Below are positions 2,426-6,551 of a stretch of 64,000 bases of DNA, piece by piece (position 1 is the stretch's first letter; the number at the start of each line of letters is the position of its first letter). Under the pieces are notes generated by a model that did no database searches, was not told the DNA's origin, and worked only from the letters and a program-made list of their open reading frames with translations. A program made the position numbers and the translations under genes. The stretch spans positions 273,268 through 337,267 of the forward strand of contig CAVPXI010000006.1 in assembly GCA_963709585.1 (NCBI GenBank), in the 5' to 3' direction. The DNA is from Candidatus Dormiibacterota bacterium. Lineage in GTDB: Bacteria; Chloroflexota; Dormibacteria; Aeolococcales; Aeolococcaceae.

Positions 2426-3265
2426 CTACGCCGGGCGTTGCACCGCATCGCGCGCCCGCCCGCGCTCCCCGTCGCCGAGCGGAAGCGAGAGGCAGCGCAC
2501 CCCGCCGCCCGCCTTGAGAAACTCCCCCATGGCATGGGGGATCGGCGTGTAACCCGCGGCCCGGAGCGGTGCCTCCAGCTGCGAGATGGTCAGCGACGAG
2601 AGCACGAGCCGGCCGAGCGGCATCGCGTTGCAGGCAAAGCCCGCGGCGACCTCGACGGGCACCTCGATGAGATTCGGCACCAGCTCGCGGATCAGTCGCA
2701 TCGAGGCGGGGGCGAACGCGTCCGGAGCAGCCAGGACGTTGGTGGCATCGAGCGGACAGAAGCAGGTGTCCAGATGATAGAAACGCGGGTCGACAAGCTC
2801 CAGGGACACGACGTCGACCTCGAGGATGCGCGCCACCGGGTGGTGGGCTTCGCGATCGGTTCGAAACCCATAGCCGCAGAAGAGCCGGTCGCCGACGAAC
2901 AATGCATCTCCAGCGCCTTCGAATGACAGCGATCGTGGCAGTTCGTGGACATCGAAGCCCAGCCGCTCGAGCTCCCGGCGCCAGTGCACCTCCTCCCCCT
3001 GCCGCTCGGGGTGATGGAAGTTGCTCAGGACGGCGCGGTTGTCCCACAACACGGCCGCGTTGGCCGTGAAGACCATGTCGGGCAGACCCGCGACCGGTGC
3101 AGCCAGTTCGATCTCAACACCGAGGTCGACATAGGTGCGATAGAGCGCGTCCCATTGCGCCGTGGCCAGCTCGTGGTCGACCTTGACCGCGACGTGCATC
3201 CACGGGTTGATCTCGTATTCGATGCCGAAGTGGTCCGGTCGGCACATTAGGACCGTTGCGGTCAT
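2426..3265 (-). CDS. Amidinotransferase/pentein-family enzyme (DDAH / arginine dihydrolase-like)
   Basis: MCRPDHF..YEINPWM, DMVFTAN, FEGAGD, YHLDT, GGGVRCL catalytic Cys motif; ATG overlaps upstream stop (ATGA). Confidence 0.88.
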   Translation of the reverse strand: MTATVLMCRPDHFGIEYEINPWMHVAVKVDHELATAQWDALYRTYVDLGVEIELAAPVAGLPDMVFTANAAVLWDNRAVLSNFHHPERQGEEVHWRRELERLGFDVHELPRSLSFEGAGDALFVGDRLFCGYGFRTDREAHHPVARILEVDVVSLELVDPRFYHLDTCFCPLDATNVLAAPDAFAPASMRLIRELVPNLIEVPVEVAAGFACNAMPLGRLVLSSLTISQLEAPLRAAGYTPIPHAMGEFLKAGGGVRCLSLPLGDGERGRARDAVQRPA

Positions 3266-4374
3266 CGAGTCGCCTGGGGCAGCGCGGCTCCGTCGCCAAG
3301 CGGTAGCGGCATGAGGAGTGTCGGCGAGAATCGCGTCCCCGCGTGCAGCTCGATCGGGCCCGCCACCGCGGGTCGCTGCACGCACCAGCGAGGATCGACG
3401 TCGTCGCGAATCGCAAGCAGCTCCGGCCGAAGCAGCGACCCCGCGGAGCTGCGACCCTGATGCCGGACGGTCGCGGTGAGCGCGGGACGCAGCCAGGTCG
3501 CGGTGACCGGCTGCACGCCATCCAGGGGCGCGTCGCTGACGGTCAGGTCGGCAACGCGTTGCGCTAGCCAGCCGGCCACGAGTTGATCGTTCGGCCCGTC
3601 CACATGCCCCGCGAACGTCAGGCGGCCGGCGACATGCTCGCCGAGGATGAGCCGGGTGCCGCCACGCCGGCGCGCGACGATACCCGCGACGACGCAGGTG
3701 GCCTGATCCGTCAGCCCGATGCGCAGACGATCGGGCGAGGCGACCCCGGGGCGGTAGGGAGCGTTCGCGCGCCGGGCGAGCAACGCAGCGAGACCCCTTC
3801 CCATTGCGGCGGCCGCGAGCGCCTCGCCACGCCCACGCACATGGTCCGGTACCTGGAGAGCATCGCTCTGCCCGGCCAGGTCTCCGAGGGCATCGAGGCG
3901 GCGATCGAGGGGCCAGCCGAGCGTCGACCGTCCGTCGAGATGCAGGAGGTCAGAGCCCAGATACACGGCCGGCAGCTCGTGCGCCGCAGCGGGTCCGGCG
4001 GCGAGACGCCGCCCGAACCCCGCCAGGTCGGGACGTCCCTCGGGGTCGAGGACCGTGATGACACCGTCAAGTACCGCGCCCCGGCCACCCCGCACCGCTG
4101 CGGGCGCGGCAACGTCGGGGAAACGCCGTGCGAGATCGCCGGGCATCTCACCCTGGATCCGGACGGCCCCGACCGGGTCGAGGAAGAGCAGCGCCCGGGC
4201 TCCATCCCAGTCGACGCTGAACAGCCAGTCGCGGTCGTCGAACGGCGCGGCGCAGGGAACCGACGCCTCGATCGCGATATACCTGGAGAGCTGGGGTGGG
4301 GTCGGGGATCGAAAGGGCAGAGGATCGCCGGACGCTGCCAGGGCGGCACGAGACAGGCCTGCTCTCCCGGCCAC
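3262..4374 (-). CDS. ATP-dependent DNA ligase-fold protein (LigD/LigC-like) with degenerate catalytic motifs
   Basis: Colinear by eye with the ligase+OB domain of neighbouring LigD (WDGxR, LDGxI, DLLxLDG, YRPG, WLRP), but motif I KxDG is DWDG. Confidence 0.8.
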   Translation of the reverse strand: MAGRAGLSRAALAASGDPLPFRSPTPPQLSRYIAIEASVPCAAPFDDRDWLFSVDWDGARALLFLDPVGAVRIQGEMPGDLARRFPDVAAPAAVRGGRGAVLDGVITVLDPEGRPDLAGFGRRLAAGPAAAHELPAVYLGSDLLHLDGRSTLGWPLDRRLDALGDLAGQSDALQVPDHVRGRGEALAAAAMGRGLAALLARRANAPYRPGVASPDRLRIGLTDQATCVVAGIVARRRGGTRLILGEHVAGRLTFAGHVDGPNDQLVAGWLAQRVADLTVSDAPLDGVQPVTATWLRPALTATVRHQGRSSAGSLLRPELLAIRDDVDPRWCVQRPAVAGPIELHAGTRFSPTLLMPLPLGDGAALPQATR

Positions 4375-4391
4375 GCCCGACCCGCGGAGCC

Positions 4392-5252
4392 TCAGGAGGC
4401 CCGGCGCCGGCGCGCCGGTTCCAGCGCGGAGGCGTCGTCGGCGGCGGATTCCTCTGCGTCGGCGCCCTCGGCTCGGCGCGATTTCGCCGCCTCGACCGAC
4501 GCTTTGAGCGCGGCCATGAGGTCGGTGACCTTGCCGGGCTCGCGCACCTCGGGCCGCTCGAGCGGCTGGTTGGTCAGCTTGGAGTCCACGACCTGGATCA
4601 ACGCCTCACGGTAGTCGTCGTGGTAGCGCGCCGGGTCGAAGTGGGCGCTCATGTTCTCCACCAGCATCACCGCCATGTCCAGCTCTTTCTTGGGGACCTC
4701 AGGACCTTGCTCGGGTATCGCCAGCTCGCCTGCCGAGCGGATCTCGTCCGGCCAGTGCAGGGTGTTGAGCAGCAGACCCTGGTCGTGGAGCGCCAGGCGG
4801 CACAGATGCTCGCGGTCGCGCAGGGCGATCTTCCCGATGGCGACGGTTCCGGTCTTCTCGAGCGCCTGGCGAAGCAGCGCGTACGGCTTGACTTCCACCG
4901 CCTCCGGTTCGAGGTAGTAGGCGCTCTTCAGATAGACGCCCGCCTCGATCTCCAAGTCCGGGCAGAACTCGACGATGTCGATGGTGTGCGTCGTGGTCAG
5001 GGGCAGGTTGTCGAGGTCCGAGTCGGTCACGATCACGTACTCGTCCTTGCCGACTTCGTAGCCCCGCAGCGCTTCGCTCCAGCCGATCTCGCGATCCTCC
5101 TCGGGGCACCAGCGTTTGTTGCGGACCGGAGTTTGGTCGTTCGGGCAGAGCAGCCGGAACGAAACGCTCTTCGATTCGGTCGCCAGGTACAGCCGCACGG
5201 GGATCGCCACCATGCCGAAGCTGATGGCGCCCCGCCACATGGATCGAGGCAT
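4392..5252 (-). CDS. ku: NHEJ DNA end-binding protein Ku
   Basis: MPRSMWRGAISFGMVAIPVRLY, RGYE, YYLEP, LHWPDEIR, DLMAALKASV. Confidence 0.97.
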   Translation of the reverse strand: MPRSMWRGAISFGMVAIPVRLYLATESKSVSFRLLCPNDQTPVRNKRWCPEEDREIGWSEALRGYEVGKDEYVIVTDSDLDNLPLTTTHTIDIVEFCPDLEIEAGVYLKSAYYLEPEAVEVKPYALLRQALEKTGTVAIGKIALRDREHLCRLALHDQGLLLNTLHWPDEIRSAGELAIPEQGPEVPKKELDMAVMLVENMSAHFDPARYHDDYREALIQVVDSKLTNQPLERPEVREPGKVTDLMAALKASVEAAKSRRAEGADAEESAADDASALEPARRRRAS

Positions 5253-5858: not shown

Positions 5859-5884
5859 TTGGGAAGCGGGGATCTTCGCGTTGA

Positions 5885-6513
5885 TCACGGGTAGGGGCCG
5901 GCTTGATGGGCCCGACCTTGATCGCACCTCCGCACACCATGCTCGACTGGACGTCGGTCACGTCGGTCTGGAAGCGCGATGTCGGCAGCGTTACCCGCCA
6001 GAATCGGGGCCTCTCCGCCTGCGCCGCGGTACATGTGGCATCGGTCCAGGAGACGAGGAAATAGCCGTGCCCGGTCGCGCCGACGGCGCCGAGGGGTTCG
6101 GTGCCGGGCGGAAGATGGACCGGCCCGGGGGACGCCAGCGAGTTGTCGTTGGTCCAGCTGGTGTTCAGCAGACCGCCGCTCGACGAGAGCATCTGCAGCT
6201 TTGCGTAGCCGTTCTCGGTGCAGTCACTCGTCGACGTGTTGCGAACCTCGAAGGTCGCGTAGATGGTGCCTGCCGCGCCCTGGGTGTTGAGGATGTCGAT
6301 CTCGAACTGTCCGGGCATGCACGCAACTGGTGGGGTCGCGGTGGGATTCGGGGTCGAGGTCGGGGTCGAAGCGGGCGTCGGGGTCACAACCGGTGTCGGG
6401 GTCACCGGGATCGCAGTCGGCGAAGTGCTCGGCACCGGCGGAGACGACGACCCGCAGGCGGCGAGCAGGCCTGCGGCCACGAGCAGCACAGGCGGAACCA
6501 GCACCCGTCGCAT
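5885..6513 (-). CDS. DUF4232-like secreted lipoprotein; probable 1-nt deletion near the stop
   Basis: Lipobox LAAC, Pro/Thr linker, GAAG..F..RN.S..C...GY motif; adding one base to the G-run at 5894-5897 gives ..PIKPAPYP-stop instead of read-through across HNH and ku. Confidence 0.7.
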
Positions 6514-6551
6514 CGCGACGCAGGGTACCTGCAAACCGCGCTCGACGCGCG

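Follow-up and report, generated by a model that had tools for sequence, protein, structure and literature searches.

A probable pseudoenzyme derived from the LigD ligase domain and encoded next to ku in Dormibacteria

The window analysed here, a stretch of 64,000 nucleotides from a Candidatus Dormiibacterota genome, encodes on its minus strand, directly behind ku, a protein that we call pslig (from pseudo-ligase gene), and we class this protein, by its sequence, as a pseudoenzyme that derives from the ligase domain of LigD and is tied to Ku through its gene position. It combines homology to the ligase with loss of the catalytic motifs, conserved replacement residues, purifying selection, synteny with ku and the presence of an intact LigD alongside. 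Bacterial NHEJ (non-homologous end joining) is taught and studied as a minimal system with two components, Ku and LigD, and in this break repair, usually described as two-part, pslig probably acts as a non-enzymatic third part. The reading favored here, to which we assign a probability of roughly 0.55, is that pslig is a non-catalytic, Ku-linked NHEJ subunit or regulator, i.e., a folded pseudo-ligase with nucleotidyltransferase (NTase) and OB domains, kept as a co-transcribed partner of ku. A first-pass annotation, made from the letters of the window, had proposed a degenerate ligase paralog with an accessory role in NHEJ. The intact, selected, catalytically degenerate and ku-linked paralog is borne out by the present analysis, while the accessory role keeps the conditional form in which it was put forward. 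Of the refuting conditions that it named, those open to computation (close orthologs with KxDG, dN/dS near 1, no synteny with ku) all turned out not to apply. What that annotation missed is an older clade of paralogs with repeated loss of the catalytic lysine, an active-looking member of this clade, and the conserved tails of the protein.

Ligase scaffold, lost motifs and selection

The open reading frame runs from a GTG start at 4374 to a TGA stop at 3262-3264 with zero internal stops. In a BLASTP alignment, residues 51-333 of pslig are colinear with residues 269-561 of the LigD in the window, with 34% identity over 295 columns and an E value of 2e-35, in agreement with the earlier claim of an intact frame of 370 amino acids colinear with the ligase and OB domains of LigD. 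The NCBIfam model of the NHEJ ligase domain, TIGR02779, matches pslig with an E value of 1.4e-31 and 109.8 bits, the curated cut-off being 227.75. In a Pfam search the OB model PF04679 alone was found, at 26.7 bits just below its cut-off of 27.5, and the adenylation-domain model PF01068 was not matched. Among solved structures, those nearest in sequence (phmmer) are the M. tuberculosis LigD LIG chains 6nhx and 1vs0, with E values of about 1e-19.

An AlphaFold2 model of pslig, built from a 75-sequence alignment of the family, has a mean pLDDT of 85 and a pTM of 0.83; it is confident for residues of about 30-340 and of low confidence at residues 1-30 and 340-370. The fold of this model is that of the ligase NTase and OB domains. 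Its top Foldseek match is the M. tuberculosis LigD LIG structure 6nhx (E 7e-25, TM 0.70 by target), and closed-form archaeal ligases and human ligases are further top matches. From the BLASTP, profile, AlphaFold2 and Foldseek results taken together it follows that the NTase and OB scaffold has been kept and that the active site has not. Public annotations of pslig homologs read either "hypothetical" or "bifunctional NHEJ protein LigD", of which the latter is wrong.

When the motifs of pslig are compared with those of the window's LigD in the same alignment, ELKYDGIR has become SVDWDGAR (motif I), DGE has become DGV (III), FDLL has become SDLL (IIIa), EGIVGK has become AALLAR (IV) and WVKIK has become RLRIG (V), so that each substitution listed in the first-pass annotation is reproduced, including the replacement of the adenylated lysine of motif I (KxDGxR) by Asp55, at the codon that had been assigned to it. 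The Glu of motif III, the Glu and Lys of motif IV and the second Lys of motif V are also required for steps 2 and 3 of ligation and, given the loss of motifs III, IV and V, the steps after adenylation are unlikely to be carried out by pslig. The formation of ligase-AMP itself requires the motif I lysine, according to PMC8656161, and with this lysine gone pslig is therefore not expected to form ligase-AMP.

The replacements are fixed. A word-indexed protein search returned 176 proteins at E <=1e-5, and the tallies that follow are for the best 120 of these 176, which are 47-95% identical to pslig and nearly all about 330-375 amino acids long. In the column of the motif I lysine there is Asp in 106, Glu in four, a gap from truncation in ten and Lys in none, i.e., Asp or Glu in every one of the 110 sequences that extend over this column. 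The motif III Glu is Val in 115/120, the motif IV Lys is Arg in 120/120 and the first motif V Lys is Arg in 115/120, while the position of the second motif V Lys is variable; Arg201 of pslig occurs in 120/120 and Arg218 in 115/120. In the 75-sequence alignment W56, G58, R60, G104 and R216 are invariant, as part of a total of 22 invariant residues. The family reaches down to about 40% identity and never has Lys at motif I. In a HMMER search of 1.84 billion representatives it is set apart from ordinary ligases by a gap in score, with E <=1e-45 for the family and E >=1e-39 for the ordinary ligases; all its members have at most 374 amino acids, and there is therefore no fused form among the representatives.

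The same picture is obtained from GTDB species representatives, where 143 stretches encode a relative of pslig and the best 79 distinct loci of these were used. The titles of their records are almost all those of Candidatus Dormibacteraeota, Dormiibacterota or Dormibacteria metagenome-assembled genomes, with a few other labels. The motif I site is Asp in 66 and Glu in 11, i.e., acidic in 77/77 loci that cover it, with two truncated, and the match to pslig is unfragmented in 75/79. The check proposed in the first-pass annotation, on whether the exchange of lysine is conserved among orthologs, thus comes out in its favor in both samples.

The conservation of the pocket bears on an alternative, according to which pslig has remained an enzyme but catalyses some reaction that is not the adenylylation of lysine: it might act on pre-adenylated ends, by sealing or de-adenylation, or bind a phosphate ligand, via Asp55, Asp57 and Asp103 together with Arg60, Arg201, Arg216 and Arg218. 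The near invariance of the replacement residues, tallied above for position 55, Arg201 and Arg218, speaks for this possibility, since a pocket so conserved suggests more than a filled-in cavity, and Chlorella virus ligase mutants without the lysine are reported still to seal pre-adenylated nicks. However, pslig has other residues in place of the Glu of motif III, of both Glu and Lys of motif IV and of the second Lys of motif V, the ligase-type metal-binding acidic pair is gone and no specific alternative reaction is indicated, which makes a remaining enzymatic activity of this kind quite unlikely.

Selection on pslig and its neighbors was estimated from codon alignments of metagenome loci, both as medians of pairwise (NG86) dN/dS, the ratio of nonsynonymous to synonymous change, and as maximum-likelihood (ML) omega (GY+F3X4, with the same eight loci for all genes).

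Table 1. Selection on pslig and on the other genes and domains of the locus
Gene or domain	NG86 median dN/dS	ML omega
pslig	0.145	0.067
LigD ligase domain	0.138	0.046
ku	0.113	0.036
LigD POL	0.060	0.026
LigD PE	0.113	0.046
HNH	0.050	0.019
DUF4232	0.212	0.113
DDAH-like	0.111	0.034

With 16 loci, ML omega is 0.070 for pslig and 0.027 for ku. Within pslig, omega is 0.065 for the NTase-like domain, 0.087 for the OB domain, 0.040 for the N-terminal tail (30 codons) and 0.024 for the C-terminal tail (25 codons). The gene is thus clearly under purifying selection, despite a faster amino-acid change than in its neighbors, and its omega of 0.067-0.070 is of the same order as that of the LigD ligase domain and well within the dN/dS below 1 that the first-pass annotation had asked for. 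With homology to active enzymes, essential residues replaced, purifying selection and an intact frame, pslig is, as judged from its sequence, a pseudoenzyme.

The composition of pslig is unusual at first sight, with 40 Arg and no Lys among 370 residues and a family median of one Lys. As a special feature of the protein this was rejected: Lys makes up only 1.7% of the residues across 1469 crude open reading frames of the genome, and frames with zero Lys number 17 among the 991 crude ones of at least 300 amino acids and 51 when frames of at least 200 amino acids are counted. As Lys is scarce genome-wide, a protein without it is unexceptional in this organism.

Linkage to ku, the paralog clade and the terminal tails

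From the ku stop at 4392-4394 there are 17 nt to the GTG of pslig, and the pslig stop overlaps, in an ATGA, the in-frame ATG (3265) of a gene for a DDAH-like (dimethylarginine dimethylaminohydrolase-like) protein; gap and overlap had both been read correctly in the first pass. Among the species-representative loci, ku lies directly upstream on the same strand in 73/73 that have at least 1 kb of upstream DNA, which extends the adjacency seen in the window to the whole sample (a strict filter finds ku at 72 of the 73, the matches at L134 being overlapping ones). In the 72 loci where it was measured, the gap between the stop of ku and the start projected for pslig has a median of 18 nt. In the metagenome loci ku precedes pslig in 24/31, and the other seven contigs end within 541 nt upstream; the recurrent order there is LigD, DUF4232, HNH, ku, pslig, DDAH-like and response regulator. 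In the species representatives the DDAH-like gene follows pslig in 70/75 loci, a LigD-POL match lies within about 6 kb in 45/60, and the HNH gene is upstream of ku in 46/60 with enough upstream DNA.

A complete LigD is encoded elsewhere in the genome in 5/5 genomes without LigD near pslig, and the ligase-domain genes of the window's own genome are pslig, LigD and a LigC-like gene with Lys intact. Short contigs of more than 90% identity, from the metatranscriptome runs X19 and X20, map to ku and to parts of pslig, and the junction between the two genes is spanned by record 26 of X20 (4301-4537) and record 21 of X19 (4337-4472), which we take as a weak hint of transcription.

To place pslig among its relatives, 151 genomes of the phylum were sampled and all ligase matches in the same class were read. 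Every sampled family of Dormibacteria (f1-f4) has a stand-alone ligase-domain gene by ku together with a separate, Lys-intact LigD, and the families differ in the motifs that their ku-adjacent copy has kept (Table 2).

Table 2. Motifs of the ku-adjacent ligase-domain copy in four families of Dormibacteria
Family	Motif I	Other motifs	Loci
f3	EVKWDG (Lys kept)	DGE, EGxxAK and WLKVK intact	L006-L008, L010
f4	EVRWDG (Arg)	III and V lost, IV lost in part	L013, L017, L018
f2	FEVAWDG (Ala)	III and IV kept, V lost	L168, L171, L173
f1 (this genome)	Asp or Glu	all other motifs lost	

The f3 paralog stands directly after ku in L006 and L007, and there is no ku match in the short loci L008 and L010. In a tree of 76 rows (IQ-TREE quick search, LG+C20 PMSF, rooted on a different ligase type, without bootstraps), the family with Asp or Glu, the f2, f3 and f4 paralogs, a group with Arg from another family of Chloroflexota, f16, and a tail-less group with Leu, Ala, Asp or Lys at the motif I site form a clade of 42 rows with an SH-aLRT support of 95.6, and all sampled LigD and LigC ligase domains fall outside it. 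The Asp/Glu family is monophyletic, with a support of 99 in an earlier FastTree tree of 166 rows. (The row L020 of the FastTree tree and of the early motif sets is from an unpublished genome, G038; nothing stated here rests on it, as the same type is present in G013.) When the site is scored as Lys or not Lys, parsimony gives three changes on the tree, in which losses and regains are inseparable. If it is assumed that a full set of catalytic motifs is never regained, the catalytic lysine would have been lost independently at least four times in the clade, to Arg, Ala, Leu and Asp/Glu. The pattern suggests that the main job of the paralog tolerates the loss of catalysis or does not need catalysis.

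What the ku-adjacent paralogs of all four families share is a C-terminal extension past motif VI, with a short hydrophobic, Pro-containing end of the type L-P-hydrophobic. It ends in DLTRFPF in f3, in a basic residue followed by x-LPQLPF in f4, in QLPRLPI or HLPQLPI in f2 and in FxPTxLxPLPL in the Asp/Glu family (PTLLMPLPL in the window); a motif of the type (D)LP(F/L) is also found at the N-terminus of ku-adjacent paralogs. P340, L357 and P358 are invariant in the Asp/Glu family (75-sequence alignment) although the region is predicted to be disordered, and no such tail was present in any of the 30 ordinary Lys-bearing stand-alone ligases compared. Such features are what one would expect of docking peptides, and the tails are the most likely candidates for docking elements of pslig.

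Table 3. Features of the window around pslig
Feature	Coordinates	Strand	Remarks
pslig (pseudo-ligase gene)	3262..4374	-	370 aa + stop; stand-alone LigD ligase (NTase+OB) domain homolog without catalytic residues
pslig N-terminal tail, residues 1-35	4270..4374	-	predicted disordered, conserved; consensus PLPxxxPxPPxLPG; candidate docking motif
pslig nucleotidyltransferase-like domain, residues ~36-225	3700..4269	-	motifs I SVDWDGAR, III LDGV, IIIa SDLL, IV AALLAR, V RLRIG
pslig Asp55 codon, position of the adenylated Lys in active ligases	4210..4212	-	by arithmetic from the start at 4374
pslig OB-fold domain, residues ~226-335	3370..3699	-	motif VI partly degenerate: LLRPELLAIRDD vs LRHPAFRTLRPD in LigD
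pslig C-terminal tail, residues 336-370	3265..3369	-	predicted disordered, strongly conserved FxPTxLxPLPL; candidate short linear docking motif
ku, 286 aa	4392..5252	-	TIGR02772, 283 bits
LigD, 1006 aa	6552..9572	-	three domains (phosphoesterase, ligase, primase-polymerase); no ligase motif altered (ELKYDGIR)
HNH endonuclease gene, 173 aa	5325..5846	-	between LigD and ku; conserved locus member
DDAH-like gene	2426..3265	-	start taken as ATG at 3265; conserved downstream neighbor
DUF4232 lipoprotein gene	starts 6534	-	between LigD and HNH gene
Response regulator and histidine kinase genes	beyond DDAH-like gene	-	same minus-strand row

Some observations concern the neighbors in their own right. 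The Ku C-terminus (4392-4530, minus strand) has in this lineage a helix that is conserved, VTDLMAALKASVEAAKSRR, followed by an acidic linker and by a basic end that looks invariant, EPARRRRAS, and the helix is the counterpart of the mycobacterial LigD-binding region as described in PMC13717202. The HNH protein is the most conserved of the locus, with 94-100% identity and the lowest omega of Table 1, and is possibly an end-processing nuclease of the NHEJ locus. The DDAH-like, or arginine-dihydrolase-like, protein scores 281 bits with NCBIfam NF045659, whose cut-off is 300. The DUF4232 gene (about 5880-6534, minus strand) is without the stop of its relatives, seven of which end in GPIKPAPYP; in the window the frame continues as GPIKPAPTRDQ and stays open, in another phase, across the HNH gene and ku to 4699, and this read-through is probably due to a 1-nt indel, by assembly error or as a real frameshift. 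On the species-representative contig of L137 the block from LigD over DUF4232, HNH and ku to pslig is duplicated in inverted orientation and its matches are fragmented, which is most likely due to faulty assembly. A reading of the locus as anti-phage defence was rejected, with PADLOC blank for pslig, ku, DUF4232 and the DDAH-like gene and with only generic HNH (PtuB-like) matches for the HNH gene.

Possible modes of action

A non-catalytic role in NHEJ fits best because pslig has kept the fold, has conserved replacement residues (acidic at 55; Arg at 60, 201, 216 and 218), is tightly coupled to ku and coexists with LigD. In the mechanism that we propose, pslig would be tethered to Ku (or to LigD) by its conserved disordered N- and C-terminal motifs, and an alternative or added contact may be provided by the ligase-domain surface that the Ku C-terminus touches in LigD. 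As described in PMC13717202, the Ku C-terminus contacts both the ligase domain and the polymerase domain of LigD, and a look-alike of the ligase domain therefore has a plausible route to Ku. The retained ligase clamp of pslig would hold a DNA end or a nick unsealed, and pslig would so promote or gate the action of the true ligase LigD, either as a helper, in synapsis, end protection or hand-over to LigD, or as a restraint, in the form of a decoy. In this mechanism the contacts of pslig with Ku or LigD and with DNA are inferred, as is the direction in which it would act, as helper or as brake.

A further-reaching version of the proposal is put forward tentatively. In Dormibacteria, and perhaps in other Chloroflexota as well, end joining may be a three-part machine of Ku, LigD and a peptide-docked, ligase-derived pseudoenzyme that clamps the break or nick unsealed, and the role of the third part may have been structural even before catalysis was lost. 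The order of events in the last point would follow, if the reading is true, from the repeated loss of the lysine in paralogs that retained their tails and their linkage to ku.

If the restraint were the whole of the function, pslig would be a negative regulator only, i.e., a decoy that occupies the LigD-docking arm of Ku, or the nick, and limits mutagenic end joining until conditions change. The scaffold of pslig is the same as that of the LigD LIG domain which the Ku C-terminus contacts according to PMC13717202, and a position 17 nt behind ku favors matched expression of the two proteins. To this comes a weak point, that Asp161 of pslig aligns, by hand mapping, with K579 of M. tuberculosis LigD, where the exchange K579E raised the affinity for Ku according to the same paper. 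The present data do not separate a decoy from a helper, and the catalytically intact member that family f3 keeps at the ku-adjacent position fits better with a working partner. We consider a purely negative regulator unlikely, though it is an alternative to be kept in mind.

Several observations weigh against a non-catalytic role of pslig in NHEJ. The folded core of the protein has a pI of 6.7 and is not obviously of a DNA-binding type. With the exception of DUF4232, every other gene of the locus is better conserved than pslig, whose identity at L055, for example, is 67%, compared with 87% for ku. The matches are fragmented in 4/79 species-representative loci (L115, L130, L137 and L139), which may be frameshifted copies or assembly errors. 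The X19 and X20 contigs come from relatives, give neither strand nor transcript ends and possibly include contaminating DNA, and the parts of pslig that they leave uncovered are uninformative. The synteny of pslig could reflect co-regulation with the DDAH-like gene. Finally, neither ku nor LigD was found within about 5-7 kb of the f16 paralogs in 4/4 loci analysed, of which two sit among unrelated metabolic and transport genes, so that not all members of the wider clade are linked to ku. These f16 paralogs (L176-L179) bear tails, read ETRWNG or EVRWDC at motif I and keep motifs III and IV.

The rate of evolution and the fragmented copies could also be taken to mean that pslig, which evolves faster than the other NHEJ genes of the locus, is what is left of a ligase gene that was duplicated, lost its function and is now decaying. 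An omega of 0.067-0.070, a frame intact in 75/79 loci, a family that has 22 invariant residues although its members diverge down to about 40% identity, and the conservation of the very residues that were substituted in the motifs are all contrary to this, and because of these data on selection and conservation decay is effectively refuted.

A further possibility is that the role of pslig is unrelated to end joining, its adjacency to ku being inherited and its partner being the DDAH-like enzyme or a hub such as the beta sliding clamp. The DDAH-like gene, as stated above, comes next in 70/75 loci, with the ATGA overlap in the window, the f16 paralogs are not near ku, and in some paralogs the tail motifs (QLPRLPI, LQSLPL) bear a loose likeness to the peptides that bind the clamp, for which the consensus is of the type QL[SD]LF. 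On the other side, in the short loci examined from the other families of Dormibacteria, ku was detected beside the ligase paralogs but a DDAH-like gene was not; DinB of the window's genome carries the canonical clamp motif QLDLF, to which the Asp/Glu-family tail PTLLMPLPL, without Gln, is a poor match; and the gap between ku and pslig is tight throughout the 72 loci measured. A function outside end joining is improbable, and a non-catalytic NHEJ role remains the reading that we prefer.

Significance and relation to known systems

No description of a natural LigD-type paralog without the lysine was found in full-text searches of the literature or by term look-ups in PMC8656161, PMC7719229, PMC7470946 and PMC5124664, subscription-only papers being outside this scope. 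If the favored reading is true, pslig is a class-wide and selected third part, encoded directly behind ku, which would mean that bacteria, too, have evolved end-joining scaffolds or regulators, and that the ATP-dependent DNA ligases join those enzyme families that have given rise to pseudoenzymes. The series of Lys, Arg, Ala and Asp/Glu at one ku-adjacent position is a natural set for the study of roles of the ligase domain beyond sealing, and the conserved tail peptide is a candidate for the first bacterial docking motif in NHEJ.

The nearest known system is the LigD LIG domain itself (M. tuberculosis 1VS0, 6NHX and 6NHZ; TIGR02779), with which pslig shares the NTase and OB fold, the colinear sequence and the ku neighborhood. 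It differs in that motif I is without its Lys, motif III without its Glu, motif IV without both Glu and Lys and motif V without its second Lys, with 110 bits against the 228-bit cut-off, and, unlike LigD, pslig stands alone, without POL and PE, and has conserved disordered tails. The f3 paralog belongs to the same clade, follows ku (L006, L007), has a C-terminal tail of the same type (DLTRFPF) and coexists with a separate LigD in its genome, but it keeps all catalytic motifs and is, on that ground, presumably an active ligase. LigC, found in Actinobacteria and others, where it serves in backup NHEJ and base excision repair, is like pslig a stand-alone NTase and OB protein related to the LigD LIG domain. 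The LigC-like genes, including that of the window's own genome (contig C21), where KFDG is intact, nevertheless form a separate clade (support 99), keep the Lys and have no ku match beside them in the loci examined.

In eukaryotes, XRCC4, XLF and PAXX are non-catalytic NHEJ factors with Ku-binding motifs, and if the three-part version put forward tentatively above is true pslig would be a bacterial functional counterpart of these scaffolds. The likeness is proposed as an analogy only, between non-enzymatic proteins that are docked by terminal peptides and support or gate a ligase; the folds are unrelated and no homology is claimed. A further parallel may be the ligase-dead mycobacterial LigD, mutated in the motif I Lys, which reportedly keeps a structural role in NHEJ while LigC does the sealing. 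Here, as for pslig, an adenylation-defective module of the LigD type possibly still aids end joining, but the ligase-dead LigD is a laboratory point mutant of a multidomain enzyme, whereas pslig is natural, separately encoded, anciently fixed and far more degenerate.

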